Assembly: GCA_030429725.1 (NCBI GenBank)
Contig: JAUIEX010000002.1
Coordinates: forward strand, 5,229-69,228
Direction of reading: 5' to 3'
Source: Alphaproteobacteria bacterium
GTDB taxonomy: Bacteria; Pseudomonadota; Alphaproteobacteria; Rickettsiales; UBA8987
Length of the DNA stretch: 64,000 nt
A program made the position numbers and the translations under genes. Below are positions 34,698-49,837 of the stretch, piece by piece; position 1 is the first letter of the stretch, and every line of letters starts with the position of its first letter. The notes under the pieces were generated by a model. That model ran no database searches. It was given only the letters and a program-made list of their open reading frames with translations, and was not told the DNA's origin.

Positions 34698-34704
34698 TCC
34701 CGCC

Positions 34705-34806: not shown

Positions 34807-34844
34807 TGCCCGAAAGAAAAGCTTCTACCCAACTCCCCATCTAC

Positions 34845-35034
34845 TAAACTCCCCACTTGTGGGGGAGTCGAGGTGCGGCCTGTGAGATAAAATCGAGCGC
34901 CGCAACTCGGTGGGGGCTGCAAACTGCAAACCGCTAACTGCAACCCTCTACTCAACTCTCACCGCTCAATGACCCCCACCGGATCACGCATCGTTTCACT
35001 CGCGCTCTCCGACTCCCCCGTGAAGGGGGAGTTA
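34845..35034. mobile_element. MITE-like nested-hairpin repeat, copy B
   Basis: Left end is TAAACTCCCCACTTGTGGGGGAGTC and right end is GACTCCCCCGTGAAGGGGGAGTTA (35011..35034). The right ~60 nt are nearly identical to copy A. It contains a 7-nt periodic stretch (CTGCAAA CTGCAAA CCGCTAA CTGCAAC...). It ends 8 nt before the g15 stop. Confidence 0.85.
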
Positions 35035-35042
35035 AAGGCCAC

Positions 35043-38000
35043 CTAAACACTCACCTCCGCCGGTCGGCCACGCCCAATGCGCTCGGACATTTGATAAATC
35101 TTCACACTCACGCTGCTTTGCGGGCTGCCAAAATCGCTTGTTTGATCCGCAGCGTCATAGCTAACGGATGGAGTGGAGGCACTCAGCGTGCGAACCACAT
35201 CTTCACCGTCCAGAATGTCGATCTCATAGGCTTCGGAGGCCTCCGAAAGCGGCACGTCCACACCATCCCGCCAGCTGCCGCCATGGCGCGTGCGGCGAAT
35301 CCAGCTGATCGTCAGGTTGCCCGCCCCATCACGCTCCCCCGCCACATGCGCAGGTGCATATGGCTTCAGCGCATTGGCATTGTAAGCAAAGCTCTGCGCG
35401 TTGGTTTCTCCCAGTGTTTCACCAATCGAAACCGCCTTATAGAGCCGCGACAGGCCAATCAGCCCATCCGGCATATTCACCTTACCGATGCGGCTATCCA
35501 GCAGCACGAAATCATCCCCTGCCGCATGGCTTACAGTGGCATGCTCCGTGCCCAGCCGCCCGCGCAGCAAGCCACTTAAGCGATATTCACCCGCACTCAC
35601 CAGAGTTGCAGTGGTAAACTGAATCACCTCCCCGCCCAGCAGTGCCGCATTGGCGCCGTTCAGTAATGCCTCCGTAGAAACACTCTCCAGCGTGCCGTTG
35701 GAAAGCAGCACGGTCACATTATTTGCAACATCCATCACACCCGCCGCGCCATCCGCCAGCGCCGTAATGGCTTTGCCCATCACCGCCCGATTATTATTCA
35801 CCAGCACCTGCCCATAACGCGCACCGCCATCGTCCGAGCGATAGAGAATACTGCCCTGCCAGCCGGATTCCTCCCCGCTAACGGCCACCCGCAGCAAAGC
35901 GTCCTCTGCATCATCGCCGGCCAGCAGCGGCACATCCAGCAGCTTCAACCGCGTGGCGCCCGCCGGCACTTCCGCCTGAGTGCTGCCGCTTGTTTCCGCC
36001 GCCGCGGCGTCACTTTCATAAAGCGCCACATCCTCCGCAATGCCTTTGCAACGAAGGCGCCCACCTTCTTCCAGCGTGGTTTCCATAATGCGAATCGTGT
36101 GGCTTTGGCCGTTGCTTGTCACCGTCACCACATCGGCAGGAGAGATTGCCGCATATTTCGGCGGCAGGATAAACTGATAACGCATCCTCGCCGTCCAGGC
36201 CTGACACAGCGCCACATCCGCCGCCATCTTGCCGCGCTCATCCCCCATCACGATCGGGAAATTGATGATATGTTTTTGATCGCTCGCTACGGATTGCCGC
36301 GACGCACGCTGGGTGCCGATCTGATAATCAAAACCCCGGCTGAGGTAATTCACCTCCACCGCTTTGGGCAGATCGGCCTCCTGCCCGCGTGTGATGGCCA
36401 GATGCACCGCCTTTCCACGCTGTTTGAAGGGCACCAATTCATCCTCGGCAATCGTTACCGCAGACGCATTGCCGCGCGGCAGATAGTCCACCTGCCCGTC
36501 TTCTTCCCGCGCATCAAAAAAATACGCTGCCTGAAGCTGCGCAATGGCACTTCGCGCACTCACCGGCTGTTTCAGCACATAGCCTTCCACCAAATCACTC
36601 AGCTTGGTAACATCCATTTCACCACTATTTAAGCCCGCACGCAGCCCAATATCCTGCACAATGGCGGCAAGGGAAGATAACCCCATTTTACCATTCACCC
36701 AATGCCCGGTTTTCCATAATCCGCCATCGGTCCAGATATTTGTCATTTCCGGCCAGAAGGAAAATGGCCGCGCATCCCATGTCCAGACAAATTTTTGCTC
36801 CACCATGGTAGAGCCTTCCCACGCGGTTTCCGTGGCCTGCAACCCTAAACGCTGCGCAGAATTATCCACCCGCCCGCGTGAAAAGCGCGGAAAGTAGCTC
36901 TCCGAACTGGTCGGGTCATAAAACACATTCGGCTGGTTGGTTGCCCCATCTACGGATGGAAAACCATATTCCGTGAACCAGAATGGCTTGGATTCCGGCA
37001 CCCAGGCAGTGGTGCTGGCATCCGGGTTCACATGCTCATTTTCCCAGAACCATTGCAGATTTTTCCACGCATATTGTGGGCTGATCGCCGCCTGCGTCGT
37101 TCGCGCTTCATCCGTATATACCCAGTCATACCCCTCCCCGCTTGTCCAGCCATCAATGGCTTTTTGCAGGGTGATGCCGCTTTGCGGCTCATCCGTCAGC
37201 GGGAAATAGGCATCAATGCCGATAAAGTCGATATTCGCCGAAGCCCAGAGCGGATCAAGATTATACCAGCCATCATCCGTGTGGTGATATTCGCTCCAAT
37301 CCGCAGCATAGGTCACCTTCGTGCCACTACCCACAATCGCCTTTACACTGGCCGCCAAGCTCACCAGCGCGTCCACCGCCGGGAAGGAATCATCCCCACT
37401 ATCCTGCACGGAAGTTAAGCCCACCAGCTCCGAACCAATGACAAACGCATCCACATTCGAAGCATCTGCCAAGTTCGCATAATGCGTTATAAATTCATTA
37501 TAACCATTTGTTTTTGTAAAGAAATTAGCAACATTACTAACGCTCCCCGTCACCCGGCCGCGCCATGGCTTATTTTCCGTATCCATAAAAAACATCGGGT
37601 ACAGCATCACCTGATAGCCCCGGCTTTTCAGCTCCCCTATCAACCGCGCAACCGAAGCATCCGAAGGCGTGCCGCCATAAACCGGGTTACCATTTTCATC
37701 GAGCGAAATTTGCGGTGCGGAGGCACGATCCCAACTGCCCACGCCCCACTGATCCGGCTCTGTTGTCGCGCCATCTTTATATTCCACATAGGGCTTGATC
37801 GTACAGCCCCCGGCGTCCACATCATCCCCAAACCATGTCACCACAACACTCACCCATTCTAGGTTTGGAAAAGTGGCCTCCAGCTGATCCAGCGACGCCA
37901 GCACATCCGCCTTGCCGCTCACATTATTCTGGTTAATGCGCACCTGCTCACCGCTTTCGAAAAAATCATCGCCAATCTGCTGGCCAATCAGTTTTTTCTG

Positions 38001-38693
38001 CACGTTGGTGTCATACACAAACTCCCCGGAACCGGGAATCATCGTCATCGCCGTAATCTGCTCTTCCAGCGGCGCATCACCACTATTAAGCGCAGATTTA
38101 CGCACCTCAAACGTAAAGTTAGGAATACGATTGCCAAATTGCTCAAGCGGAAAATCCTCAATCACCACATACGCCACCCCGCGATAAGCCGGCACAAAAC
38201 CACTACCAAGCTCCGCCTCCATGGCAGAATCCGGCAATTGATCTTCCGTTCCTTTATACAGGCGATAAACACCTGAATAGTCATTGATATTAATGGTTTT
38301 AGCATCCGCCCACACGCGCACCACCTCGTCAATCTCCCCTTCGCAAATCGCAATGGCCAGCGTCACGCTATAGCTATAGCTGGTCTGGGAAACACTGCGG
38401 CCGCTGCCGCCCTTGCCGCTGCCGGATTCTGTCGTCGTAGCACTTTCCATAATCGGCTTAGACCAGATCACATTGCCCGCCACACGCGCCGTGCCATAAA
38501 GCTGCGGCACCATGCGGCCATAGGTGGAGGTTTGCACCTGCAAATCTTCCAAGCGCGGGCCTTCCACCACCAGCTTCTGCCCGGGCAACACACCCAGCGC
38601 AGTATCAATCTGCGCGCCCAGCTGAATGCCTTGCAGCGCAAGGCCAATATCCCCCGAAGCCGCTCCTGCTGCGCCTAATACAAGTGTAGTCAT
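35043..38693 (-). CDS. GTA g15-type host-specificity / baseplate protein
   Basis: 1216 aa. The N-terminus (PRLEDLQVQTSTYGRMVPQLYGTARVAGNVIWS...SYSYSVTLAIAICEGEI) and the central glycoside-hydrolase-like region are typical of RcGTA ORFg15 homologues. It is in the last structural gene position. Confidence 0.85.
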   Translation of the reverse strand: MTTLVLGAAGAASGDIGLALQGIQLGAQIDTALGVLPGQKLVVEGPRLEDLQVQTSTYGRMVPQLYGTARVAGNVIWSKPIMESATTTESGSGKGGSGRSVSQTSYSYSVTLAIAICEGEIDEVVRVWADAKTININDYSGVYRLYKGTEDQLPDSAMEAELGSGFVPAYRGVAYVVIEDFPLEQFGNRIPNFTFEVRKSALNSGDAPLEEQITAMTMIPGSGEFVYDTNVQKKLIGQQIGDDFFESGEQVRINQNNVSGKADVLASLDQLEATFPNLEWVSVVVTWFGDDVDAGGCTIKPYVEYKDGATTEPDQWGVGSWDRASAPQISLDENGNPVYGGTPSDASVARLIGELKSRGYQVMLYPMFFMDTENKPWRGRVTGSVSNVANFFTKTNGYNEFITHYANLADASNVDAFVIGSELVGLTSVQDSGDDSFPAVDALVSLAASVKAIVGSGTKVTYAADWSEYHHTDDGWYNLDPLWASANIDFIGIDAYFPLTDEPQSGITLQKAIDGWTSGEGYDWVYTDEARTTQAAISPQYAWKNLQWFWENEHVNPDASTTAWVPESKPFWFTEYGFPSVDGATNQPNVFYDPTSSESYFPRFSRGRVDNSAQRLGLQATETAWEGSTMVEQKFVWTWDARPFSFWPEMTNIWTDGGLWKTGHWVNGKMGLSSLAAIVQDIGLRAGLNSGEMDVTKLSDLVEGYVLKQPVSARSAIAQLQAAYFFDAREEDGQVDYLPRGNASAVTIAEDELVPFKQRGKAVHLAITRGQEADLPKAVEVNYLSRGFDYQIGTQRASRQSVASDQKHIINFPIVMGDERGKMAADVALCQAWTARMRYQFILPPKYAAISPADVVTVTSNGQSHTIRIMETTLEEGGRLRCKGIAEDVALYESDAAAAETSGSTQAEVPAGATRLKLLDVPLLAGDDAEDALLRVAVSGEESGWQGSILYRSDDGGARYGQVLVNNNRAVMGKAITALADGAAGVMDVANNVTVLLSNGTLESVSTEALLNGANAALLGGEVIQFTTATLVSAGEYRLSGLLRGRLGTEHATVSHAAGDDFVLLDSRIGKVNMPDGLIGLSRLYKAVSIGETLGETNAQSFAYNANALKPYAPAHVAGERDGAGNLTISWIRRTRHGGSWRDGVDVPLSEASEAYEIDILDGEDVVRTLSASTPSVSYDAADQTSDFGSPQSSVSVKIYQMSERIGRGRPAEVSV

Positions 38694-38854
38694 AGAGAAT
38701 CTCTGTGGTTAAAAGTTAATTATTTTTTATATAACGCCATGCAAAGCGGCGTAACTTTAGGCATTCCCTGCACGCACCAATGCAAAAAAGCCTTTTATAT
38801 AAATGACTTGAAAAAAAAAACGATCTGTTAGAATTAAGTTACAATCTTTTGAAT

Positions 38855-38977
38855 ATGGAAGCATTTTCAATATGCCTGATGTTATTTGGTGTGTGCGTTT
38901 CAATTGGAGCCTTAACGGCACAGCTTAAACGCATCGCCGATTCATTAAGCGATAAGAATCAGGAAACTGATTCTTAA
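38855..38977 (+). CDS. Possible 40-aa single-TM ORF on the opposite strand inside the g14-g15 spacer
   Basis: ATG ORF MEAFSICLMLFGVCVSIGALTAQLKRIADSLSDKNQETDS. TTGAAA-15 nt-TAGAAT lies upstream. No clear RBS. Weak support. Confidence 0.2.
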   Translation: MEAFSICLMLFGVCVSIGALTAQLKRIADSLSDKNQETDS

Positions 38978-39090
38978 GCTTAGCCCCAAGCCTTTGGGCG
39001 ATATGATGCGTCATCACTGGCTCGTTCCAGTAACGCAAGCATACTCGTTTACAAAAAGGCTTCGGGGCTTTTTTATTTTCCACTTCTCTC

Positions 39091-39726
39091 CTAACGAAAT
39101 TCATACACCCCCACCAAGCGCCGCTGCCAGCTTGCATCAAAATGCGTTTCCACCACCTTCCCGGCCGGCAGATAGGCATGGATGAGGCGGATGTTAGGTT
39201 CGTCATTCCCAACTTGATTGGGAATCCAGTCTATTTTTTTATTTCCTGGATCCCGGGTCGGATCCTGATACTGCGCATCAGGGCCGGGGATGACAGCACC
39301 GGGAAAACTTTTCTCACTGCCCACTGCGCACTGCTCACTAAAAACCAAACCAACATGCTGCGGCTGATGACGCATGCGGAACAAGCCAATCCGCACATCA
39401 TTAGTAACTCCCCCCTCGTGGGGGAGTCGGAATCTTTGACTCCGGCGGGGGGGGAAATTATTTCCCTCGTTACTCTTCTCTCTTTCATCTTGAATAAAAT
39501 GCCGCCCCAGCATCATCTGCAAACGCTCGCCATCCGGCTCACGCGGGTAATCCCGCTCATCATAATCTGCCACAAGCCCGCCAGAGGCGGAAGGGAGTTT
39601 TAATGCCCGCGCCACTTCCACAATCAGCCCAATGCAATCCACTCCCACGCCCCTCACCCGCCCCTGATGGTGAAATGGTGTTTCCAGCCAGCTGCGTGCC
39701 TCGGTGATTATTTCTTCATTACTCAT
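39091..39726 (-). CDS. GTA g14-type NlpC/P60 cell-wall peptidase carrying repeat-derived in-frame insertions
   Basis: N-terminus EARSWLETPFHHQGRVRGVGVDCIGLI (catalytic Cys context), then LFRMRHQPQHVGLVF and IHAY...VVE (His contexts). At 211 aa it is longer than the ~150 aa I recall for g14 homologues. The extra segments coincide with repeat DNA. Confidence 0.8.
   Translation of the reverse strand: MSNEEIITEARSWLETPFHHQGRVRGVGVDCIGLIVEVARALKLPSASGGLVADYDERDYPREPDGERLQMMLGRHFIQDEREKSNEGNNFPPRRSQRFRLPHEGGVTNDVRIGLFRMRHQPQHVGLVFSEQCAVGSEKSFPGAVIPGPDAQYQDPTRDPGNKKIDWIPNQVGNDEPNIRLIHAYLPAGKVVETHFDASWQRRLVGVYEFR
39315..39342. repeat. 7-nt periodic array inside the g14 coding sequence
   Basis: CACTGCC CACTGCG CACTGCT CACTAAA, translated on the minus strand as FSEQCAVGSE. 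Confidence 0.6.
39405..39458. mobile_element. MITE-like half element, copy C, in frame inside g14
   Basis: TAACTCCCCCCTCGTGGGGGAGTC followed by GGAATCTTTGACTCCGGCGGGGGGGG matches the reverse complement of the right end of copy D. It is read through as FPPRRSQRFRLPHEGGVT. Confidence 0.8.
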
Positions 39727-39935
39727 TGTAATACCTAGATAAATTGAAAAATAGATGAGACATTATTGTTTAGAGTGCTTTCGCTTTTCTTTGGTGCTAG
39801 GCAGCCAAGGTGAATAAAATTTTAGCGTACCTTTGATGAGCGGTTGCGCTGTGCGCAGAGCGAATCAACAAAAATGCCTACATGAATTTTCCGAATCCGA
39901 TGGCTAACAAAGCGCACGACGGAATGAAAAATGCT

Positions 39936-40778
39936 CTAGCGTGTTCCAGCTGTTTTCAGCATCGCATCCGTGCCCGGAACATGCGGAAAGCCCCTGAAAT
40001 TACTTATATTATTAAACCGCTGACGGCAGGTGGTCAGCGTTTTATCACACCCGCCAATCAGCGAATAGCCATCCCCCACCTCCACGTCATAGGGCATGGG
40101 CAACATCAATGTCAGCTCACCGTTATTAAAATATTTCACCTCCATGCTCAGGCCGTCATTTGCCCCGCCAGTGAAAATTATCTGCCCGTGATTAAACAAA
40201 CCGGCCGTTTCACTGCGTGCTGAATCTGCAAACACCGTGCGGCTGGTCACCGCGGTCACCGTCCCCGTCACCGTATGCGCAGCCAGATTCACCCCGCAGC
40301 GCCCGTCACCAAGCTCAGCGTCGCAGCCGGGGGTAAATAACCGCCCGATAGTGGTATCCAGCTTTTGCATCAATCCGCGCAACTCCGCTGTGAAATGGCC
40401 CTCCCCGGTCTGCACCTCACCAATCCAGCCCGTGCGCAGATTCATCACCCCATCTTCAGGGGATTCCGCATTCATCAAAAAGAGCGAAACTTCCGCATAA
40501 TCGTATTTTCCGGCCAGAATATCGGCCTCCGTAATTGCTTCATCATCCAGAAGCCCCAGAAGTTCCAGCGCATCCACCGCCAGATCATCCCGCCCCTTCA
40601 CCGCAGAGGCATTAAAACCACTGCCAGCCTGATAGGTTACGCTGTCATATTCAATATCCTGATCATGCTCCGTAAAGCCAAGCACGGCACCATCACGCCG
40701 TGTTATTTTCCAGCAGGTGGCCAGGCTGGTCAGCTCGCCACCCAGATGGGTTTGTAAATTTGCAGAAACTGTTTTCAT
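39936..40778 (-). CDS. GTA g13-type tail hub protein (DUF2163 / BR0599 family)
   Basis: MKTVSANLQTHLGGELTSLATCWKITRRDGAVLGFTEHDQDIEYDSVTYQAGSGF..., 280 aa, with a C-terminal Cys-containing region. Confidence 0.85.
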   Translation of the reverse strand: MKTVSANLQTHLGGELTSLATCWKITRRDGAVLGFTEHDQDIEYDSVTYQAGSGFNASAVKGRDDLAVDALELLGLLDDEAITEADILAGKYDYAEVSLFLMNAESPEDGVMNLRTGWIGEVQTGEGHFTAELRGLMQKLDTTIGRLFTPGCDAELGDGRCGVNLAAHTVTGTVTAVTSRTVFADSARSETAGLFNHGQIIFTGGANDGLSMEVKYFNNGELTLMLPMPYDVEVGDGYSLIGGCDKTLTTCRQRFNNISNFRGFPHVPGTDAMLKTAGTR

Positions 40779-40821
40779 TGAAGTCCATTCATCGTTAAAA
40801 GTGAAGTGATCGTAGCATCAT

Positions 40822-40898
40822 GTTCCCGTAGCTCAGCAGGATAGAGCAACAGATTCCTAATCTGTAGGTCGGAGGTTCGAATCCTCTCGGGAACACCA
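40822..40898 (+). tRNA. tRNA-Arg (anticodon CCT)
   Basis: Manual cloverleaf. Acceptor stem GTTCCCG/CGGGAAC, D stem GCTC/GAGC, anticodon stem ACAGA/TCTGT with loop TTCCTAA, 5-nt variable loop, T arm GGAGG-TTCGAAT-CCTCT, discriminator A, encoded CCA. Confidence 0.9.
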
Positions 40899-41013
40899 TT
40901 CATTCTTTTTAAGGGTTAAGCAACAGCGCCTTAAAAAGGATGGATAATTTTCATTTGAGGATGAGAACAATGTTCGAAACCGAGGGCAACAGCCCGCAGG
41001 TTCGGCGAAGCCA

Positions 41014-41032
41014 ATCCTCTCGGGAACACCAA
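41014..41032 (+). repeat. Duplicate of the tRNA-Arg 3' end (att-like scar)
   Basis: AATCCTCTCGGGAACACCA is identical to 40880..40898. It is preceded by AGGTTCG (40999..41005), which resembles the T arm. Confidence 0.85.
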
Positions 41033-41037
41033 CAGCC

Positions 41038-41640
41038 CTAAACCCGCACTTCCACCAGCGGGATTGGGTTCACGGCAAAGGCGCCATAATCCTGCAGGCT
41101 GACGGAAAGCTGATCCACATCAAACCGCACCGGCACATCAAATTCAAAATCCGCCTGAATTGCCACCCCGCCACCCGGCGCACTATCAAACGTCACCTCG
41201 CCTGTGGCGGCATCCACAGTAACACCACTGCTTTGCAGCACGGAATCCAAATAGATATTCACCGTGCTATCCACCGGCTTGGTGATGTTGCGTGTTTCAG
41301 TGCGCGCACCACTTTGATAGGTCTTCACCAGCTGGAACACGGTGGTTGCACCATCGCCCGCGCCAATCACCTGCCCGGTTGCCTGATAATCCGCATGATC
41401 CTTGAAACGAAAGCCATAGGCACGCCCTTTGCGGGCACGAAAAAACGCAATCAGCGTATCCAGCTCCGCTTGTGTTTTCACCCCACGCGCCACATTATAA
41501 CGCGCGCGCGCCGCACTCCAATTCACATTGCGCTGTTCATACCCATTGGCAAGCATCACAATATCCGTGGCATATTCCGGCCCCCCGGTGCTGCCATAGG
41601 CAATGGCATCGGGAAAGCGCACTTCATCAAAAGCGGCCAT
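41038..41640 (-). CDS. GTA g12-type distal tail protein (DUF2460 family)
   Basis: MAAFDEVRFPDAIAYGSTGGPEYATDIVMLANGYEQRNVNWSAARARYNV...LIAFFRARKGRAYGFRFKD, 200 aa. Confidence 0.85.
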   Translation of the reverse strand: MAAFDEVRFPDAIAYGSTGGPEYATDIVMLANGYEQRNVNWSAARARYNVARGVKTQAELDTLIAFFRARKGRAYGFRFKDHADYQATGQVIGAGDGATTVFQLVKTYQSGARTETRNITKPVDSTVNIYLDSVLQSSGVTVDAATGEVTFDSAPGGGVAIQADFEFDVPVRFDVDQLSVSLQDYGAFAVNPIPLVEVRV

Positions 41641-41700
41641 ATTTATTCCTAATGTTTTAGGTTAAATTATTATTTTAAATAATTGATTATAATTGCATTA

Positions 41701-42387
41701 TCACGCAACAGTTCCGCGCCGTTGCCCGCGCTCCGGCGCAAACTCATCCGCACGATTGAGGGATGGCTTAAATTCCTGCTCATTACCAATGCCTTCCAGC
41801 AGCGCACCCAAATCAAACGCGTGCTTCATGCCATTCTCCATTTCTTCCATGCGGGCATAATGACGCTCCGTCTGCACAATGGCCACCATCATATGCTGGC
41901 GCTCGGCAATATCCGCCATCTGATCCGGCGTCAGATCTTCCACGGACAGCTCACTATTACTGCCATCCAGATAATCCCCCAGTTTTTGGGCAAGTTTGTT
42001 CATGCCCTGCATGCTAACCGCCACGCCAAGCTTATCCAGCGCCGTGGTGAGTTTTTCTTTCATTTCCAGTGAAAGTACACGATCTTCTTCCGTCGCATAA
42101 CTTCCTGAATCACTATTATTTTCGGATGAAGCATCACCACTACCATCCACAATGCCCCCGGCATCCGCAGGGATTTCTCTAAAACCACGCGGATCATCAA
42201 AACCCGCATTCGCGTCTTCCGCCGCGCCTTGATTTGACACCGGCTGGTCGGCCGGCATGCCGTTAATCATCCTTGTTAATTCCGGTGGCAATTCAAGCAA
42301 ACTACGCACACCGGCACCGGCAAGGCCACTGCCAATTTTCTGCGCTTCTGCTGCCAATGCATCATAACTCATAGTTAAATATACCAT
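41701..42387 (-). CDS. Acidic 228-aa protein at the tape-measure (g11) position
   Basis: Assignment is by position only (between the major tail module and the g12-like gene). It is acidic, low-complexity and helical. I see no similarity to the Gly-rich RcGTA g11 sequence as I recall it. Confidence 0.3.
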   Translation of the reverse strand: MVYLTMSYDALAAEAQKIGSGLAGAGVRSLLELPPELTRMINGMPADQPVSNQGAAEDANAGFDDPRGFREIPADAGGIVDGSGDASSENNSDSGSYATEEDRVLSLEMKEKLTTALDKLGVAVSMQGMNKLAQKLGDYLDGSNSELSVEDLTPDQMADIAERQHMMVAIVQTERHYARMEEMENGMKHAFDLGALLEGIGNEQEFKPSLNRADEFAPERGQRRGTVA

Positions 42388-42418
42388 AAAAAGCTTTAAA
42401 ATTCATTAAAATAATACC

Positions 42419-42715
42419 TTAATGACCACCTAAATTAAGAAGTGATTCAAAAATATTGCTACCGCCATCCGCAGAAAAACGCCCACCGGACGCCCCCACC
42501 CCGTCTGAAAGACCGGAAAGCTGCTGCACAAAACCTGAAATTTCCTGAAATTGCTGAATTAATCGCAACATATCCTCCAATTGTTTCAGGCCATTGGTAA
42601 AATCATCGCTTATAATTGAACGAAACTCACTTCGCAAAATGCGGCTTGTGCGGAGCAATGTTTCCATTTGCGCCTGCATTTCCTGCAATTGATTTGAGCT
42701 TAAATTCTCTTCCAT
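42419..42715 (-). CDS. 98-aa coiled-coil protein at the tail-chaperone (g10) position
   Basis: Assignment is by position only. It starts 9 nt after the major-tail stop. Helical heptad-rich sequence with a Gly-rich tail. Confidence 0.3.
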   Translation of the reverse strand: MEENLSSNQLQEMQAQMETLLRTSRILRSEFRSIISDDFTNGLKQLEDMLRLIQQFQEISGFVQQLSGLSDGVGASGGRFSADGGSNIFESLLNLGGH

Positions 42716-42724
42716 ATCAAACCT

Positions 42725-43135
42725 TTAAGCAGCGTTATAAGTAACATTTCCGGAGGATTGCAGCACCACGCGCACCTCCTCCGCACCGTTGATTGCCCCC
42801 TGCCGCTGATAATCCCTGATCATCGCCGGAAGCACCATGTCATCCCCATTACCAAAGCTCACTTTTACATTGGCCGCCGCGCCATTAAAGGCCATTGCCC
42901 GCAGGCTTTCTTCCACTGAAGCATCCGTAAAAAGCCCTTCCAGCGTCAACTGCACCTGCGCAATGCCACTTTCACCCAGCTCCTTCTGCCATGCACCGCT
43001 GGTGACATACACGGCCGGCACCGGGCGGCGCTGAATGCGAAGCTCTGTCACGCGCACACCCGGCAATAACGTAAACACTTCCGGATCCGCACCATCACCC
43101 AATGCACATGTTAAATTTTTACCCGCCTGAATCAT
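42725..43135 (-). CDS. GTA g9-type major tail protein (TP901-1 family)
   Basis: 136 aa. ...VTSGAWQKELGESGIAQVQLTLEGLFTDASVEESLRAMAF... matches the RcGTA g9 pattern. Position fits. Confidence 0.8.
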   Translation of the reverse strand: MIQAGKNLTCALGDGADPEVFTLLPGVRVTELRIQRRPVPAVYVTSGAWQKELGESGIAQVQLTLEGLFTDASVEESLRAMAFNGAAANVKVSFGNGDDMVLPAMIRDYQRQGAINGAEEVRVVLQSSGNVTYNAA

Positions 43136-43143
43136 AGCTCAAC

Positions 43144-43548
43144 CTATTGTTTTTGAATACGAAATCTTATTAAACACTCAGCCTGATAGCCAATCACATC
43201 GCGGTGCACTTCCGCCTCAACGCCCTCCAGCCAGTGGTCAATCACCGCGTGGTTAGATAACGCTAAATTCGAGGCCTCCAACACAGCCACCGCCCTTTCG
43301 ATAATCTCAAGCACCGTCAGGCGTGATGGCACATCGCTATGCGCGCGCAAAACAACATCCAGACGCGAAATATCCACGTTCAATGCCGGTTCACTCACAG
43401 ATTCAGTCATGTTAATTAAGAGATAGGGCGATTCAGCGCCTTGCGGTGCATGGTCATAAATCCCGCTAACCAGCGCCGCCAATGTTGCATCCGCCGTCAG
43501 CTCACTATAAATCGCCGCTTGAAGCTCTTTCCAGCCCAAAGCACTCAT
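43144..43548 (-). CDS. GTA g8-type tail completion protein (DUF3168)
   Basis: 134 aa, LTADATLAALVSGIYDHAPQGAESPYLLI. ATGA overlap with the upstream gene. Confidence 0.75.
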   Translation of the reverse strand: MSALGWKELQAAIYSELTADATLAALVSGIYDHAPQGAESPYLLINMTESVSEPALNVDISRLDVVLRAHSDVPSRLTVLEIIERAVAVLEASNLALSNHAVIDHWLEGVEAEVHRDVIGYQAECLIRFRIQKQ

Positions 43549-43898
43549 AACGCCACCCCACTTTCAGCAATAATGTCCAACTGCTCTTTGCGCCCCGTTG
43601 GATCAGACAAACTCCGAATATTGAGCATTTCATCCTGATAACAGATACTCATAGATTGAGTTAGATTATCCTTATATCGTATTGTTATTTTATATTTTTT
43701 CTTATTATTAATTTTACCATTTTCCATAATCTCTTTACTGGCCTGCGCAGGCGAATATGGCAGAACTTCCGCCCAGACCGTGCCAATATTCACCCAACTC
43801 ACCGTAAAACCTCCGGCAAAATCGGATGTGCGAACAGGATTACGAAAACTAATGCGTGATGTCAGACGGGATGCCAGAATATCTTTTTTCATCACCAC
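43545..43898 (-). CDS. GTA g7-type head-tail adaptor / head-closure protein
   Basis: 117 aa, RISFRNPVRTSDFAGGFTVSWVNIGTVWAEVLPYS... typical of SPP1 gp16 / HK97-type adaptors. Confidence 0.8.
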   Translation of the reverse strand: MVMKKDILASRLTSRISFRNPVRTSDFAGGFTVSWVNIGTVWAEVLPYSPAQASKEIMENGKINNKKKYKITIRYKDNLTQSMSICYQDEMLNIRSLSDPTGRKEQLDIIAESGVAL

Positions 43899-43899
43899 C

Positions 43900-44442
43900 T
43901 CACAAATAAATCACGCGGTAAGGGTCATATTGCATCAGCGTATCGGGCGGCAGATTTGTCTGGCCACGATGCTCAAACATATAGGCCACATGCGCCAGCA
44001 AGCCCTGTTGAATATCATAGGGAACCTGGCTGGCATCGCCATAACCCGCCACATATTCCACCTCCACCATGTGCGCCACGGGGGAAATATCGAACCGCAA
44101 TGCGGCATTCCCGGCCGAAAGCGTATAAGCACTGCCGGATAATGCCTGTGAAGTGCCGTCACGTGTGGTCAGCGTCACCGCCATAATTGATTGCACGGGC
44201 CCACGCATCAATTGCACCCGGGCGGGCGCAAAATCATCAAAACCCATTTTCCAGCGCTGCGTAATCAGCGAACGCCGCATGAATTTCTCCGCTGCCAGCC
44301 GCGCTGCGCGAATCATCTGCAGCAAGGTGATATCCTCATCCTGCTCATCAATTTTTAGGTATAATTTTGTTTCTGCCAAACTGAGTGGCTCCGTTGACGG
44401 AGCAAGAGTTTGGGTTAAATGCGGCATGCGTGATGTCAGCAT
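43900..44442 (-). CDS. GTA g6-type head-tail connector (gp6-like)
   Basis: 180 aa, LSLAETKLYLKIDEQDEDITLLQMIRAARLAAEKFMRRSLITQ... is a connector-family N-terminus. Confidence 0.8.
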   Translation of the reverse strand: MLTSRMPHLTQTLAPSTEPLSLAETKLYLKIDEQDEDITLLQMIRAARLAAEKFMRRSLITQRWKMGFDDFAPARVQLMRGPVQSIMAVTLTTRDGTSQALSGSAYTLSAGNAALRFDISPVAHMVEVEYVAGYGDASQVPYDIQQGLLAHVAYMFEHRGQTNLPPDTLMQYDPYRVIYL

Positions 44443-44501
44443 GGATAGACTCCAGGAATTGGGATTACAGAGATAATGTGAATAGTGTGCAGTGTTCGGT
44501 T

Positions 44502-44670
44502 TAACTCCCCCTTCACGGGGGAGTCTGAATTTCGAGCGTGAGCGAAGAAATTCAGGTGGTGGTTTCTGCCGATCGAAGGCAGAAAACAGAGGACTGACGA
44601 GCTAATTTCTGACTTCTGACTAACCCCCACCGGAATCAGAGATTCCGACTCCCCCGTAAAGGGGGAGTTA
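44502..44670. mobile_element. MITE-like nested-hairpin repeat, copy D
   Basis: Left end TAACTCCCCCTTCACGGGGGAGTC (44502..44525), right end GACTCCCCCGTAAAGGGGGAGTTA (44647..44670). Internal pairs are TGAATTT/AAATTCA and TTTCTGCC/GGCAGAAA. Confidence 0.85.
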
Positions 44671-44719
44671 TAGCTTTTTCTCTTTAACTGCTCATTACCC
44701 ACTGCATACTGCTTACCAA

Positions 44720-45130
44720 CTAAGCCACCGGTGCATCGGCAGCCTGGGATTGCAGTGCCACGGCGGCAATCGGCGCATTGCCGGTATTGCCTGCCGGCGT
44801 AATAGTCAGGCGCACATAGCGCTTGCTGCCATTGTAACCAATCTTCTTCACCACATCGTCATTGGCAAAGGTGAAGGAAGCATCCGCTTCCGTGCCTAAC
44901 AGATTCGCATCCGCCACGGCTGCCGCGTCACTAAGGTCACTGGCGTCACCCTCTTCCACCAGCGTGGTGAAGGTGGCATCGGCGTCAGCCAGCGTGCCGG
45001 TCAGAATGCCAAATTCCAGCGTGTTAAAGCCCTGCATGTCAATGATCTGGCTCACCGCCGCCGTGTTATCCGTAATCACCGCCGGGCTGATCGCACGGCT
45101 GAGTTTAATGTTGTTATGGAGGTCTTTCAT
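44720..45130 (-). CDS. 136-aa phage head-associated protein (possible decoration/cement protein), not in the canonical RcGTA set
   Basis: An intact ORF between the capsid and connector genes, bracketed by MITE copies D and E. Ala/Asp/Thr-rich beta-type sequence ending ...KKIGYNGSKRYVRLTITPAG... The family name is not recognised with certainty. Confidence 0.4.
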   Translation of the reverse strand: MKDLHNNIKLSRAISPAVITDNTAAVSQIIDMQGFNTLEFGILTGTLADADATFTTLVEEGDASDLSDAAAVADANLLGTEADASFTFANDDVVKKIGYNGSKRYVRLTITPAGNTGNAPIAAVALQSQAADAPVA

Positions 45131-45169
45131 AGTGTTATCCTTTTTTGTGATTTGTTAGATTGTGAACTC

Positions 45170-45381
45170 TAATTCCCCCCTGAATGCCCCGAAGCGCGAA
45201 GCGCGTGGGGCGATTCAAAATGTGGGGGAGTCGCAGAGCCGCTTGCGTAGCGCGGCGAAGCGTGGGGGGGGCATTTTACAAAAAGATTGCTCAGCAAAAT
45301 AATCAAGGCCGTGTGTTCCTTGAACACCCCCCACGACTCACACCTTCGGTGCTCGTCTGCTCCCCCTCAAGGGGGGAGCTA
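45170..45381. mobile_element. MITE-like repeat, copy E (subfamily 2, with a nested insertion in its left hairpin)
   Basis: TAATTCCCCCC [TGAATGCCCCGAAGCGCGAAGCGCGTGGGGCGATTCAAAATG] TGGGGGAGTCGCAGAGCCG... ...GCTCCCCCTCAAGGGGGGAGCTA. It is collinear with copy F apart from the bracketed insertion. Confidence 0.8.
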
Positions 45382-45393
45382 TTTTTACGCAAC

Positions 45394-46584
45394 CTAAGAA
45401 GCCAATTTCAGCAGTTTGATGGCCTCAAAGTTCACCACATCACCGCCCACACGTTTGGTGCTATAGAACTTCACGAACGGTTTTTCAGTGTACGGATCAC
45501 GCAGGATGCGAACACCCGCACGGTCAACAATCTGATAGGCACGGCTGAAATCACCCACCGCCACGGAAAGTGTGTCCGTATCCGGCGTTGGCATATCCGC
45601 CGCCTGAAGCACAGGAACGCCCATCAGCGTATCCGGCGTGCCCGTCACCAGACCCGGATTCCACAGATACTGATTCGTGGTCGCTTCTTTCAGCAACCGC
45701 GCCTGCTGCACGGCAGAACGGCTCATCAGGAAGGTGGCGCGGGTGGCATATTCCTCTTTCAGTGCATAGAAAATCTGCACCAGACCATCGGCTGTCACCT
45801 GCCCGTCCGTGCCGGAGTCGATCTGTTCGATCTGCCCCCAGCCTGTGCCGGCATCATAGCTTAAGATGCCGCGCGGCTTGCCCACTCCGTCCCCGGAAAT
45901 AAACGCCGTGTTTTCCTTGCGGGTAAACACATCCGTCAGCTTGCCGGAAAGCCAGCCTTCAATATCCACGCTCGCATCATCAATCAGCTTTTGTGTTGCT
46001 TTGGGTTGAGCGCGGAGTTCATGCACAGGGATGATCTTTTTATTCACCTGCGGTGTGGTGGTATCGGAAATGCTGTCTGCCTCCGCATACCAGCCCGCGC
46101 CGGCCTCATCCTTATCCACAATCACTTCCAGCGAATCGGAGGAAATCGTCTCCACCGCCGCCAGTTGACGCATAGGGGAAGATTCAAACACCGTCTTAGC
46201 AATGGTTTGTGCCATGGTTGGCGTCACCAGATAGCCGCCATCCGGGTCGGAAGCCGCAGAAAGCGCCTTCTTCTCAAGGTAGGAAAGTTCTTCCTCCACA
46301 CCTTTGCGCAGATAGTTACAAAAGGCGGTCTTATGATCGCGCACATCAGGGCTGGCAATGGTAGCACCCCCCATCTCCGGCCGGCTGATGGCCGTTTCCA
46401 GCGTATGCATCCGGCTCTTTTGCTCATCCAGCGCGTTGGAAATGCGCCCCAAATGCTCTGTTGTCAGCGCGTCGGCATTGCCTTTGCGCTCAATTTCCTG
46501 CAAGCGGCGATCATTGATCGACTTAAACTGCTCCCAGGTGTTGCCAAGCGTTTCCATACGCTCCGTTAATTCACGTAAACTCAT
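45394..46584 (-). CDS. GTA g5-type major capsid protein (HK97 fold)
   Basis: 396 aa with an N-terminal coiled-coil delta-like region, then an HK97-family body (...GGYLVTPTMAQTIAK..., ...NQYLWNPGLVTGTPDTLMGVPV...). Confidence 0.9.
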   Translation of the reverse strand: MSLRELTERMETLGNTWEQFKSINDRRLQEIERKGNADALTTEHLGRISNALDEQKSRMHTLETAISRPEMGGATIASPDVRDHKTAFCNYLRKGVEEELSYLEKKALSAASDPDGGYLVTPTMAQTIAKTVFESSPMRQLAAVETISSDSLEVIVDKDEAGAGWYAEADSISDTTTPQVNKKIIPVHELRAQPKATQKLIDDASVDIEGWLSGKLTDVFTRKENTAFISGDGVGKPRGILSYDAGTGWGQIEQIDSGTDGQVTADGLVQIFYALKEEYATRATFLMSRSAVQQARLLKEATTNQYLWNPGLVTGTPDTLMGVPVLQAADMPTPDTDTLSVAVGDFSRAYQIVDRAGVRILRDPYTEKPFVKFYSTKRVGGDVVNFEAIKLLKLAS

Positions 46585-46671
46585 ACGATTTCTCCTTTGT
46601 GATGAGTTGGTTAGTTAGAGTAAAGTAGCGCCGTCGCTATAAAGCGCGCGAGCCAGTAACCGCCTGCCTTA

Positions 46672-46828
46672 TAACTCCCCCCTCGAGGGGGAGTCGCAGA
46701 GCCGTCTACGTAGCACGGCGATGCGTGGGGGGGCCGCCTGAATACAACTATAACTGAATGACCCCCCACGACTCCGCGTCGCTGCATGCGCAGCTTGCTT
46801 CGTCCGCTCCCCCTCAAGGGGGGAGCTA
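46672..46828. mobile_element. MITE-like repeat, copy F (subfamily 2)
   Basis: Left end TAACTCCCCCCTCGAGGGGGAGTC (46672..46695), right end GCTCCCCCTCAAGGGGGGAGCTA (46806..46828). Its last 3 nt are the protease stop codon. Confidence 0.85.
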
Positions 46829-47383
46829 GTAGTGAAGCGCCCGCTCCGCTTTTTCCACGGCCCGTAGCAACCGTTTCAGCATCAGCGGGGAAATCTCCTC
46901 CGGCAATTCGGCCTTCTCCTCACGCTTCACACTGGTCACCGTTGCCAATTCATTGGCGGGGAAAGTGACCAGGGAAACTTCCCACAAATCCGCCTGCAAA
47001 ATCTTCCGCACGCCGGTTTCCGGATTCACCTCCGTCTGCTTGGCGGTATAGCCAATGCTTAACCCATCCAGCGCGCCGGATTGCAGCAGGCTGTGCGCCT
47101 CCCGCGCCCGCGCCACATCCAGCAGCAGCTGCCCCTCCACATAAAGCCCGCGCCTGTCCTCACGGATGGTGGTCAACACGCCGATAGGCTCCTCCGGCTT
47201 ATGCTGCCACAGCAGCTTGATATCCGCCGGCTTCTGCGCCAGCAAACTCTCACGGAATGCCCCGCGCATCACAACATCCTTCTGCCGATCCGTCACCTCA
47301 AACACGCTGGCATAGCCGGAGAAAAACCCGCTCTCCTTCACATCCTCCAGCATCAAACTGCTTGCTAACTGTTTCTTTTGCAT
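46826..47383 (-). CDS. GTA g4-type prohead protease (HK97 family)
   Basis: 185 aa, GFFSGYASVFEVTDRQKDVVMRGAFRESL...LLWQHKPEEPIGV... Confidence 0.88.
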   Translation of the reverse strand: MQKKQLASSLMLEDVKESGFFSGYASVFEVTDRQKDVVMRGAFRESLLAQKPADIKLLWQHKPEEPIGVLTTIREDRRGLYVEGQLLLDVARAREAHSLLQSGALDGLSIGYTAKQTEVNPETGVRKILQADLWEVSLVTFPANELATVTSVKREEKAELPEEISPLMLKRLLRAVEKAERALHY

Positions 47384-47397
47384 GATTTCTCCTATTT

Positions 47398-47530
47398 CAA
47401 CTCCCCCTTCATGGGGGAATATGCAGTAAAAAATTATTCCCCCCTGGTGGGGGAATCGACATCTATGATGTCGATGGGGGGCACCCTCACCGGAATCAAA
47501 GATTCCGACTCTCCCATCAAGGGAGAGTCA
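47398..47530. mobile_element. MITE-like repeat, copy G (composite/diverged)
   Basis: CAACTCCCCCTTCATGGGGGAAT..., ATTCCCCCCTGGTGGGGGAATCGAC/GTCGATGGGGGG..., CCGGAATCAAAGATTCCGACTCTCCCATCAAGGGAGAGTCA. Confidence 0.7.
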
Positions 47531-47585
47531 TTGCCTACTGGCTCGCAGATCACCCTGTCATCCTTGAGGGCAAGAAAAAGTTTCT

Positions 47586-47664
47586 GTCATTCCAGCGAAA
47601 GCTGGAATCTCTAACCTCTTGCACTGATCATTATCCAGAGATCCCAAATCAAGTTTGGGATGAC
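47586..47664. mobile_element. Second small hairpin-ended element (GTCATTCC...GGAATC type)
   Basis: GTCATTCCAGCGAAAGCTGGAATC (47586..47609; 8-bp stem, GAAA loop) and the inverted ATCCCAAATCAAGTTTGGGATGAC (47641..47664). A relative, GTCATTCCCAACTTGATTGGGAAT, lies inside g14 (39203..39225). GTCATTGCGAGG...GCAATC lies at 32408..32444. Confidence 0.6.
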
Positions 47665-47682
47665 AAAAACGCCCCCTACGCA

Positions 47683-47710
47683 CTGCCTACTGCCTACTGC
47701 CTACTGCACA
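47683..47710. repeat. Heptamer tandem array abutting the portal stop codon
   Basis: CTGCCTA x3 plus CTGCACA, then the stop (CTA at 47711..47713). On the mRNA strand this reads TAG TGTGCAG TAGGCAG TAGGCAG TAGGCAG. Confidence 0.9.
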
Positions 47711-48976
47711 CTACTCCCCATCAACCCCCGCCAGCTTCCGTTTCTCGTCCTGTGTCAGGAAATCCGCCTCATTCAGCCGCTTCCACAGCTTTTCCCGGCG
47801 CAGCCCAAGCGCGTGAATGCCATCCACATCATAACTCAGTTTCAGCGCATGCCCTTCCCTTTGCGGGAACATCGGCACCAGCCAGCCATTCAGCGCCGCC
47901 GCGAAATGATCCAGCATCGGCAGCACAGTCTGCTCCCACAGCGCCAGCCGCGCTTCCGCTAAATTGCTATAGGTATTATCCCCGGGAATGCCCAGCAGCT
48001 GCGGCGGCACCCCAAAAGCCAGCGCAATGTCGCGCGCGGCGGAATGCTTCGCCTCCATAAAATCCATATCTTTCGGCGAAAGGCTCATCTCCTGCCATTC
48101 CAGCCCGCCTTCCAGCAGCAGCGGCCTTCCTGCATTGGCAGCACCTGAAAATTGCTCCTGCATTTCCGCTTTCAGGCGGTCAAACTGCTCATCGGAAAGG
48201 TTGCCACTGCCCTCCCCCTTCACCACCAGCGCGCCGGATGGCTTTGCGCCATTCTGTAATAAAGCCTGATTCCACTGCGCCGCCTGATTATGCTGGTCAA
48301 TGCTATAAGCCGCCGCTTCCACCGGGGAAAGCCCATGCCAGTCATCCGTCGGGTGGAAGGTTTTTAGATGCAATATCTGCGACCTGCCCGTAATCGCATC
48401 CACCGGATAGCGCCTGGTCACACCATCCACCGTATAATCATAGGCCGCCGGCAACCCGCCCCGTCCGGCAATCACCTGCACCCTGTCCGGGCGCAGCGTA
48501 TAAATCTCACGCGGCGAATCCGCACCCACCGCCAGCAAAAACACATTGCCCGCCAGCAAACGCTGCACCGCCATATTCTCTATAAGCTCCGTACCCTGAC
48601 AGCGCGGGGATGGGCACTCCATCAGGCTTAAAAGCGGATGCTGATTCACCGCAACCGCACCCTCCGGCCTTTGCATGGAAAGCTTCCATGGCACACTGGC
48701 CGCGGCCTCCGCCACCATGCGGATGGCGCGGTGTGCAATCACATTCCGGCGATAAGCCTCCTCCGCAAAGCGGGCATAATCCCGCCCCATCCACACTGCC
48801 TTGCCAGGTTGCGTAAAATAGGTTGAGGTTGCAGATGCCAGCGGCAGCGCATAGTCCGGCGCAAATTGTTTCGCCTCGTTGTTGCTGCCATTGGCCGCAT
48901 CATTACCGGTAAGAAGGTTAAATAGTCCCTGCATGCGGGACGGCTTCGCCCCGCGTTGTTTCTGCGCTTTGCTCAT
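47711..48976 (-). CDS. GTA g3-type portal protein (HK97 family)
   Basis: 421 aa, ...RNVIAHRAIRMVAEAAASVPWKL...LLAGNVFLLAV...HPTDDWHGLSPVEAAAYSIDQHN... portal-family sequence. Confidence 0.9.
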   Translation of the reverse strand: MSKAQKQRGAKPSRMQGLFNLLTGNDAANGSNNEAKQFAPDYALPLASATSTYFTQPGKAVWMGRDYARFAEEAYRRNVIAHRAIRMVAEAAASVPWKLSMQRPEGAVAVNQHPLLSLMECPSPRCQGTELIENMAVQRLLAGNVFLLAVGADSPREIYTLRPDRVQVIAGRGGLPAAYDYTVDGVTRRYPVDAITGRSQILHLKTFHPTDDWHGLSPVEAAAYSIDQHNQAAQWNQALLQNGAKPSGALVVKGEGSGNLSDEQFDRLKAEMQEQFSGAANAGRPLLLEGGLEWQEMSLSPKDMDFMEAKHSAARDIALAFGVPPQLLGIPGDNTYSNLAEARLALWEQTVLPMLDHFAAALNGWLVPMFPQREGHALKLSYDVDGIHALGLRREKLWKRLNEADFLTQDEKRKLAGVDGE

Positions 48977-49122
48977 GAAAAATCCTGTGTGATGTCTGTA
49001 ATAAGAAGCAGTATGTTTGTTACTATCCGCTCTTGATATTTTCAGAATACGCTAACTTCCAAAACCCGGAAGGGGGAAAGTTTGCCTCCGTCTATTTTTT
49101 TAAAACGGCTGAAATCAAACGA

Positions 49123-49404
49123 TTAATTGTTGAATAACTCAGCATGAGAACCCATTCGGATAAACAGAATAACGTTATTATCTTCATCACGTTCATAAAT
49201 GAGGAGCCAATCGGGCTCAATATGCAAATCACGGCATCCACGAAAATTTCCCGTCAATGCATGATCCTTATACCGCTCAGGCAGTGGAATATTATGGTAT
49301 AAAAACTCGTTAACATCCTTAAATTTCTGTATATCTTTGCCCTGTTTTTGGCAACGTTTTACATCACGCTTAAATTTTGCAGTCCATTTAATGGCATAGG
49401 GCAT
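49123..49404 (-). CDS. yafQ: YafQ-family type II toxin (ribosome-dependent mRNA interferase)
   Basis: MPYAIKWTAKFKRDVKRCQKQGKDI...LPERYKDHALTGNFRGCRDLHIEPDWLLIYE... aligns closely with E. coli YafQ as I recall it (YKDH.L.G...RD.H.EPDW.LIY). ATG 49404 is internal to ORF 49123..49410. Confidence 0.85.
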   Translation of the reverse strand: MPYAIKWTAKFKRDVKRCQKQGKDIQKFKDVNEFLYHNIPLPERYKDHALTGNFRGCRDLHIEPDWLLIYERDEDNNVILFIRMGSHAELFNN

Positions 49405-49456
49405 CACCAATTTTTATACATAAAATTACCTTTCTGCAAGGATGGAACTCTCTCTG

Positions 49457-49717
49457 CTAAATCCCCAGATCGTTATAGAATTCCTCCAATGATTCGGCGC
49501 GGTGAACCCGCCCCTCCTCAGCATCTTTCATGGCGGCCAGCGTCGTTTCATTTGGAATTTTGGCAACCGGCTGAAAGGGTAGACCACCCATCGTGACGGA
49601 TTGATGCAAAAACATCCGCACCGCATCCTGCGTGGAAAGCCCCATGGAAGCAAACAGCGCATCCGCCGCGCGCTTAATTTCTCCGTCCACACGGGTTTGT
49701 ATGAGTTCTCTGGCCAT
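49457..49717 (-). CDS. dinJ: DinJ/RelB-family antitoxin
   Basis: MARELIQTRVDGEIKRAADALFASMGLSTQDAVRMFL...LPF...ending YNDLGI. It parallels E. coli DinJ, including the C-terminal LGI. A GGAGG RBS precedes ATG 49717. Confidence 0.85.
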   Translation of the reverse strand: MARELIQTRVDGEIKRAADALFASMGLSTQDAVRMFLHQSVTMGGLPFQPVAKIPNETTLAAMKDAEEGRVHRAESLEEFYNDLGI

Positions 49718-49750
49718 AATCAGCCCTCCGGTAATATATGTTGCACTATG

Positions 49751-49779
49751 ATTATACCGCCAAACATAGCATTCAACAA
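49751..49779 (-). promoter_or_regulatory. Sigma70-like promoter of the dinJ-yafQ cassette
   Basis: On the minus strand: TTGTTG (49774..49779), a 17-nt spacer, then perfect TATAAT (49751..49756). The inverted repeat ATGCA-N8-TGCAT just upstream (49820..49837, + strand) could be an operator. Confidence 0.5.
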
Positions 49780-49837
49780 CATCCAATATCATTCATTAAA
49801 GTGCAAATACATCCAAAAACATGCAGATACATGCATT

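Follow-up and report, generated by a model that had tools for sequence, protein, structure and literature searches.

Why should a toxin-antitoxin (TA) pair stand in the middle of a gene transfer agent (GTA) cluster? Most descriptions present GTA clusters as compact operons that are strongly conserved. In a 64,000-nucleotide stretch of contig JAUIEX010000002.1 (assembly GCA_030429725.1, positions 5,229 to 69,228, here called the window), two small genes resembling dinJ and yafQ lie between terL, which encodes the large terminase, and the portal gene of an RcGTA-type cluster. An earlier note on this DNA had read them as a later insertion that could feed transcription into the portal gene or tie translational shutoff to GTA production. 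We argue that the pair is probably a horizontally acquired, complete dinJ-yafQ module and that it sits as autonomous, incidental, moron-like cargo in a permissive terL-portal slot of the chromosomal RcGTA-type cluster of an uncultured, deep-branching alphaproteobacterium.

RESULTS

The cassette encodes a complete DinJ-YafQ pair

What the two genes encode is the first matter to settle. In their order on the minus strand, terL (49838..51262) is followed by a 120-nt spacer, dinJ (49457..49717), a 52-nt AT-rich spacer (49405..49456; guanine-plus-cytosine, or GC, content of 0.35), yafQ (49123..49404), a 146-nt AT-rich spacer from the yafQ stop to the portal start (48977..49122; GC, 0.384), and the portal gene (47711..48976). 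The positions previously assigned to the terL end and to both cassette genes match open reading frames (ORFs) on that strand, and the portal start is at 48976. The dinJ-like gene encodes an antitoxin of 86 amino acids (aa) with an N-terminal ribbon-helix-helix (RHH) region and the ending ...EEFYNDLGI, at a GC content of 0.54. The yafQ-like gene encodes a RelE-fold toxin of 93 aa counted from its ATG, at a GC content of 0.376, with alternative starts 3 nt (TTG) and 6 nt (GTG) upstream. Both ORFs are full length and free of frameshifts.

The family assignment is firm for both proteins. The toxin matched the YafQ_toxin model of Pfam (PF15738) at an E value of 3.2e-33, with 114.3 bits against a cut-off of 30 and over profile positions 1-88 of 88, and the NCBIfam model TIGR02385 (RelE_StbE) with a score of 93.9 against a cut-off of 27.9. 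It aligned end to end with E. coli YafQ (PDB 4ml2_A; E 2e-20), and the YKDH, RD(L/A)H, EPD, G(S/T)HA, and LF motifs were all kept. We take these motifs to hold the E. coli YafQ catalytic residues His50, His63, Asp67, His87, and Phe91. In PHROG, the toxin matched phrog_7251, a RelE-like toxin in the category "moron." The antitoxin matched RelB (PF04221; E 7.2e-17, 61.5 bits against a cut-off of 22.4) and TIGR02384 (RelB_DinJ; 73.2 bits against a cut-off of 45.65). Moreover, it aligned over its full length, including the ...LGI C terminus, with PDB 9lew_A (E 4.8e-14) and E. coli DinJ (4q2u_A; E 1.2e-8), and its C-terminal toxin-binding region aligned with that of the E. coli protein. The Pfam, NCBIfam, and PDB alignments lie far beyond chance and bear out the proposal of a DinJ/YafQ-type type II TA pair.

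The window pair resembles the E. coli DinJ-YafQ system (PDB 4ml0, 4q2u, and 4ml2) in its antitoxin-first bicistronic order, in the 86-aa DinJ with an RHH region and an ...LGI end, and in the 93-aa YafQ with the catalytic set kept. Identity to E. coli YafQ is moderate, at roughly half of the aligned positions as judged by eye, and the match to E. coli DinJ is much weaker (38.8 bits). The window locus also differs in having a 52-nt spacer where the E. coli genes nearly abut, in lacking a LexA box, in carrying 10-nt direct repeats with no clear palindrome, and in its site inside a GTA cluster. LexA/SOS control is a trait of the E. coli dinJ locus and does not define the DinJ/RelB family.

The organism is represented by one NCBI contig and two Logan assemblies. 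The arrangement is real and not an assembly chimera, because the two independent Logan assemblies, made from different sequencing runs, agree with the window across the junction at 100% identity. No further copy of dinJ or yafQ was found in the window, and look-ups of the exact proteins returned identical proteins only from the same strain, with no record of the 95-aa TTG-start form of the toxin. We conclude from these homologies that the cassette is a complete, apparently intact DinJ-YafQ module and that its proteins are ordinary members of their families.

Evidence for a later insertion

Whether the module came late to the cluster was asked of its composition, its family, and its relatives. 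The 861-nt terL-portal segment has a GC content of 0.422, the lowest of all 861-nt segments in the 64 kb (mean, 0.499; standard deviation, 0.035), and the flanking terL and portal genes lie at 0.55 to 0.59. The toxin family is mobile, being found on 1,343 plasmid records and 16 phage records. The best homologs of the window toxin reach no more than 62% identity and are spread over Clostridia, Rhodospirillales, Enterococcus, and cyanobacteria, and two of the nearest sit in unrelated, non-GTA chromosomal contexts. Among relatives with the same TerL, whose portals are 40 to 59% identical to that of the window, terL and portal abut in five, at distances of 129 nt (L085), 0 nt (L089), -1 nt (L101), -4 nt (L167), and -49 nt (L170). 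Because the segment is the lowest in GC, the family is mobile, and terL abuts portal in these five relatives, the claim that the cassette is a later, horizontally acquired insertion is well supported. The synteny comparison agrees with it, as neither dinJ nor yafQ was detected by tblastn in any of 244 related loci screened and no TA pair occupies their terL-portal junctions.

Other observations weigh against the picture of an intact module brought in from elsewhere. In the collections searched, no genome exceeds about 60% portal, 52% TerL, or 84% elongation factor G (EF-G) identity to the window, a distance too great to reveal an unoccupied site or to date the insertion directly. The GC content of dinJ, at 0.54, is like that of the host cluster, and the AT richness is confined to yafQ and the spacers. 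Neither a target-site duplication nor mobile-element ends were found flanking the cassette, and the only perfect 9-nt inverted repeat around it (49127..49135 and 49771..49779) is at the level expected by chance for 1 kb. The toxin falls just short of the narrower TIGR00053 "YafQ family" model (84.9 against a cut-off of 87.25). Finally, the 52-nt dinJ-yafQ spacer and the weak Shine-Dalgarno (SD) sequence of the toxin gene are atypical for the family. We note also that a blastn-short comparison of the 129-nt L085 spacer with the window junction gave only chance 7- to 9-mers.

The terL-portal junction is often occupied

How unusual is it for genes to stand between terL and portal? The earlier note had taken the two genes to be adjacent in RcGTA-type clusters. 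In 62 canonical RcGTA-type clusters we determined how far the terL stop lies from the position at which portal should begin. The sample is skewed toward metagenome-assembled genomes (MAGs) of Pseudolabrys and Xanthobacteraceae, such that the counts are not independent events. The genes were adjacent (<150 nt) in 14 clusters, and in 46 the junction held 400 nt or more of other genes, the longest stretch being about 4.4 kb (for example, L040:459-1694, L016:2401-6001, and L053:1609-6001 among loci L003-L079). Cargo of 0.6 to 2 kb was likewise present in 5 of 10 clusters with the TerL lineage of the window. The premise of adjacency stands for the 14 canonical clusters and for the five same-TerL clusters named above but not for 46 of the 62 or for the occupied half of the same-TerL set. 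We conclude that an occupied terL-portal junction is common, not exceptional, and that the junction tolerates, and often holds, foreign genes. It may be a cargo hot spot.

The cargo is varied. The gaps of the canonical clusters contain 104 ORFs, among them two recurrent unknown families (12 and 11 members), DUF6968 (7), GIY-YIG (3), Cupin_5, outer membrane beta-barrels, two CdiA-CT RNase A toxin domains, one Imm1, one Schlafen/AlbA_2 protein, and one SoFic defense protein (PADLOC E 4.8e-59). RelE, ParE, and RelB proteins were absent from the junction cargo surveyed. Within the TerL lineage of the window, a conserved small ORF of 65 to 97 aa recurs in the gap (L091:2565-2762, L093:5767-6060, and L100:6484-6750); its copies are 46 to 58% identical to one another, have no Pfam or PHROG match, and have no counterpart in the window. 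In L094 the gap of this lineage holds a membrane ORF of 314 aa, and in L095 it holds an ORF of 155 aa. The window cassette resembles the junction cargo of L003-L079 and L091-L100, which comprises 0.4 to 4.4 kb of non-GTA genes at the same site, often co-oriented and in some cases toxin- or defense-like. There, however, several families turn up repeatedly in one clade (12, 11, and 7 members), whereas the window cassette is unique to one strain.

Perhaps the junction is a hot spot for antiphage or competition genes and DinJ-YafQ serves there as an abortive-infection module, an explanation that we regard as unlikely but as the best placed of the alternatives. SoFic, PDC-S04/S24 candidates, CdiA-CT RNase A with Imm1, GIY-YIG, and Schlafen/AlbA_2 all occur at the same junction elsewhere. 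RelE-like toxins are catalogued as phage morons (phrog_7251), and DinJ-YafQ pairs are found in phage genomes, one of them beside a tape measure gene. PADLOC, however, gave only 6 family rows for the 104 gap ORFs, most of which carry no defense annotation, and a sample dominated by a few related genera makes even these counts non-independent.

As in phages and prophages that carry RelE/YafQ TA morons (phrog_7251; Streptococcus phage Javan639; bajarodcaudo virus 3), the window pair is accessory cargo in a phage-derived gene set, and in bajarodcaudo virus 3 the pair lies within the structural module, beside the tape measure gene. Replicating phages carry their TA pairs along, whereas the GTA cluster is chromosomal and non-self-transmitting, and the TA pair gains no ride from it. 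The window also differs from the phage examples in the terL-portal position of its pair and in its co-orientation.

A promoter, candidate operators, and the reach of transcription

How the cassette might be expressed can be read in part from the sequence upstream of dinJ. A sigma-70-like promoter (TTGTTG-17-TATAAT; -35 at 49779..49774 and -10 at 49756..49751, minus strand) precedes the dinJ ATG by 34 nt. The -10 element is perfect, and the -35 element matches the consensus at only three of six positions, which is why a consensus scan did not list the promoter. The cassette thus has a plausible promoter of its own, as had been proposed, but "near-consensus" overstates its -35 element. For the pattern TTG-N20-TATAAT, 0.77 occurrences are expected in the window and four were found, one of them being the TA promoter. 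A strong SD sequence (GGAGGG, 49724..49729, minus strand), read from the sequence, lies 6 nt upstream of the dinJ ATG.

A palindromic operator had also been suggested, and here the evidence is weak, as the best candidate is a 12-nt, 83% inverted repeat around the promoter. Directly upstream of the promoter stands instead a 10-nt tandem repeat of 3.4 copies (49802..49835, minus strand; TGCATGTATC / TGCATGTTTT / TGGATGTATT; Tandem Repeats Finder period 10, score 47), and a further copy of its motif (49777..49785) overlaps the -35 element. Four of the 11 window-wide matches to TGSATGTWK fall within the 59 nt from 49777 to 49835, all on the minus strand, although the motif was defined there and the enrichment is post hoc. 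We consider the 10-nt repeats a candidate DinJ operator. No LexA box of the form GTTC-N7-GTTC (at most one mismatch) was found in 48977..49837, CTGT-N8-ACAG was not seen on reading the promoter region, and no CtrA box was found at the TA promoter.

Where a transcript from this promoter would end depends on the sites downstream. Read-through into the portal gene is plausible, because no minus-strand terminator-like site was found between terL and portal, and the yafQ-portal spacer is without unusual RNA structure (z-score, -0.53). In the portal-protease spacer, a terminator-like hairpin of the repetitive extragenic palindrome (REP) type followed by a T run (47456..47436, minus strand; 8 pairs, 5 of them GC; tail AATAATTTTTT) would confine any TA-promoter transcript to the portal gene. 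A role for the TA promoter in serving genes beyond portal is therefore disfavored.

These features bear on a second alternative, that the module is functionally integrated with the GTA. In that case the TA promoter would feed portal with or without later genes, or YafQ would shut off translation in the lysing, GTA-producing subpopulation, or YafQ would limit GTA production. Co-orientation, the lack of a terminator-like site between the TA pair and portal, and a dedicated promoter immediately upstream are consistent with such integration, and REP hairpins crowd the cluster spacers, one of them terminator-like after portal, so that extra promoters could matter. The portal hairpin, however, would restrict the transcript to portal, and tight autorepression is the norm for TA promoters of this family. 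The promoter has no CtrA or LexA box that would connect it with the known control of GTAs or with the SOS response. Moreover, a RelE/YafQ TA pair stands at this position in 0 of 244 other loci, so the pairing is not evolutionarily conserved. We find this integration improbable, and coupling of the cassette to GTA production is speculation. The evidence here supports neither the stabilization of the locus by addiction that the earlier note suggested nor an internal promoter serving portal together with the genes after it.

Spacing and translation of the toxin gene

Whether the toxin gene is still properly translated is raised by its spacing. As read from the sequence, the yafQ ATG lacks a good SD sequence, and in the nearest homologous TA pairs the genes are separated by 3 nt or share an overlap of 4 nt, versus the 52-nt gap found here. 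The long spacer and weak SD sequence could mean altered or decaying toxin expression. The two genes also contrast in GC content (0.54 for dinJ versus 0.376 for yafQ), and this contrast, together with the gap and the missing clear SD sequence, could reflect a hybrid origin or altered toxin translation.

A third explanation is that the cassette is a decaying or inactive remnant, too recent to have been deleted. The unusually long dinJ-yafQ spacer without a clear yafQ SD sequence and the strong GC difference between the genes would suit a remnant, as would a host cluster littered with REP insertions and interrupted by a tRNA gene. The ORFs, however, are full length and carry no frameshifts, YafQ matches its E. 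coli counterpart at every catalytic residue, DinJ aligns with E. coli DinJ through the C-terminal region that binds the toxin, and the promoter -10 element is perfect and the dinJ SD sequence strong. On balance, we doubt that the module is a remnant. Equally doubtful is a conserved, selectively maintained slot whose toxin, immunity, or defense modules (DinJ-YafQ, SoFic, and CdiA-CT RNase/Imm1) are expressed with, or protected by, the cluster and in which the TA pair would here also actively defend the cluster from the tendency toward deletion of a genome that is ridden with repeats and possibly associated with a host, or would gate translation while cells are producing GTAs.

The surrounding cluster is of RcGTA type

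The host locus is a genuine RcGTA-type head-tail cluster by the profile matches of its members. It spans 16 to 19 kb (32480..51590, minus strand), from a DUF2793 fiber-like gene through a 169-aa ORF here called ORF169. The cassette is co-oriented with the cluster genes, as had been claimed, and all are on the minus strand. The tail module comprises the megatron (35043..38693; NF048004 GTA_megatron, 1,194 bits against a cut-off of 800), an NlpC-like ORF (39091..39726), the hub (39936..40778; TIGR02218, 269 against a cut-off of 80.5), the distal tail (41038..41640; TIGR02217, 240.7 against a cut-off of 136.65), a tape measure-like ORF (41701..42387), and the tube (42725..43135). The adaptor (43900..44442), capsid (45394..46584), and protease (46826..47383) genes follow toward the HK97-type portal, which is full length at 421 aa (PF04860, E 4e-85; TIGR01537). 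Tail completion and head completion genes are present, and by Pfam and NCBIfam the genes from portal through megatron stand in canonical order. The cluster is flanked by mutS and a malic enzyme gene on one side and by an RTX protein gene and parE on the other, and no integrase was found within it or in its immediate flanks. A prophage was considered and rejected on the 16- to 19-kb size, the GTA megatron equivalog, and the housekeeping flanks.

Several features of the cluster are noted in their own right. The head completion (g7-like) gene (43545..43898, minus strand) is a compositional outlier, with a GC content of 0.41 and a third-codon-position GC content of 0.38 against 0.51 to 0.59 for its neighbors. 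In the capsid-adaptor interval, a 136-aa ORF (44720..45130, minus strand) matches phrog_5707, of unknown function, at E 1e-28 and has no Pfam match; an ORF of similar size occupies the same position in L001 (7063..7437), and the window ORF may be a lineage-specific head protein. ORF169 (51081..51590, minus strand) overlaps the 5' end of terL by about 47 to 180 nt, according to which terL start is taken. Pfam, NCBIfam, and PHROG gave no match to ORF169, and its similarity to an equivalently placed ORF of L085 is only marginal (E 0.011). It may be the small terminase (terS, g1 analog). A tRNA-Arg(CCT) gene (40822..40898) lies on the plus strand between the distal tail and hub genes, an unusual interruption of a GTA operon, and was the only match in an Rfam scan of the whole window.

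Repeats are the other peculiarity of the cluster. Palindromes resembling REP or miniature inverted-repeat transposable elements (core ACTCCCCC-N-GGGGGAGT) occupy all of the intergenic spacers between the adaptor and portal genes (44443..44719, 45131..45393, 46585..46825, and 47384..47710), and several resemble bidirectional terminators. A second repeat type in the head gene spacers translates as ...IPAFAGMT.... The TA segment is without REP elements, and the Logan contigs break at REP repeats.

The terminase belongs to another lineage

The longest terL ORF encodes 474 aa, compared with 469 aa in the Logan gene call and 429 aa in that of NCBI, and the C terminus of the protein is intact, with the family alignment consensus reaching the last residues. 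The protein matched Terminase_6C (E 2.9e-18) as its sole Pfam domain and phrog_38 (terminase large subunit; E 8e-95). The canonical TerL beside portal in the 62 sampled clusters consists of Terminase_6N plus Terminase_6C (for example, in Lutibaculum L014), and the window TerL has no detectable similarity to that of Lutibaculum (L014:4562-5878; BLASTP E 0.089). By these matches, the window TerL is assigned not to the canonical RcGTA type but to the phage-wide lineage phrog_38. This lineage adjoins GTA-type head genes in L085 and L089, and it is an orphan gene in L083 and L084, which are MAGs labeled Rickettsiales. The pattern suggests that TerL was replaced in these alphaproteobacteria or that they carry a separate GTA-like lineage.

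Linkage of terL to the cluster is variable in the group, since in L001, whose portal and capsid are the most similar of any MAG (60% each), the portal gene comes directly after yajC-secD-DUF498 and terL is absent from the vicinity (L001:658-3119). We note that L083 carries a TacA-TacT pair (PF08681 plus GNAT) immediately upstream of its orphan terL of the same lineage (L083:6831-7618), a second, unrelated TA pair beside a GTA-type terminase. The same 2.1-Mb contig of L083 bears an EF-G 82% identical to that of the window, making L083 the closest relative with a long contig. The window EF-G is at most 84% identical to any database entry, and the nearest named entries (76 to 77%) are Rhodospirillaceae, Parvibaculum, and "Rickettsiales bacterium" MAGs.

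DISCUSSION

How would an incidental, horizontally acquired module behave in this cluster? From what is known of the family, we infer that the sigma-70-type promoter drives a bicistronic dinJ-yafQ mRNA. The RHH dimer of DinJ, alone or with YafQ, would repress its own promoter, likely through the four phased TG(C/G)ATGT(A/T)(T/G) repeats lying next to and over the -35 element, and the C-terminal part of DinJ would wrap and neutralize YafQ. When labile DinJ is not replenished, YafQ would enter the ribosomal A site and cleave translated mRNA, and growth would arrest. GTA transcription from upstream could pass through the cassette into portal, since the cassette is co-oriented, truncates no neighbor, and adds no terminator, and the TA promoter could add basal portal transcription. 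Persistence of the pair would then come from the addictive nature of the module, which appears to have no GTA-specific role.

The placement appears to be new. RcGTA-like head and tail genes have been described in Rickettsiales- and Holosporales-type endosymbionts, with the terminase sometimes detached, and no TA pair was reported within a GTA cluster there (George et al. 2022, PMC9254644). The window cluster resembles those in coming from a deep-branching alphaproteobacterium, and a detached terminase is seen also in L001, L083, and L084, but the window keeps terL beside portal and has a complete tail module including the megatron. In a literature search of incomplete coverage, we found no paper that places a TA pair inside a GTA cluster or joins "gene transfer agent" with YafQ. 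We regard the cassette as a known TA family in an unreported place, and the placement as a curiosity rather than a new mechanism.

Should the cassette do no more than mark a permissive site, it is of little import in itself, being one more chromosomal copy of DinJ-YafQ. Its value in other respects is modest. Together with the survey of clusters, it shows that foreign genes, including some for toxins or defense proteins, frequently land at the terL-portal (g2-g3) junction and that the flanking genes are spared. Software for automated GTA detection should allow for genes inserted there. Moreover, the arrangement bears on how GTA operons are transcribed, by read-through or from internal promoters, and on whether addiction modules help keep GTA loci in genomes under deletion pressure.

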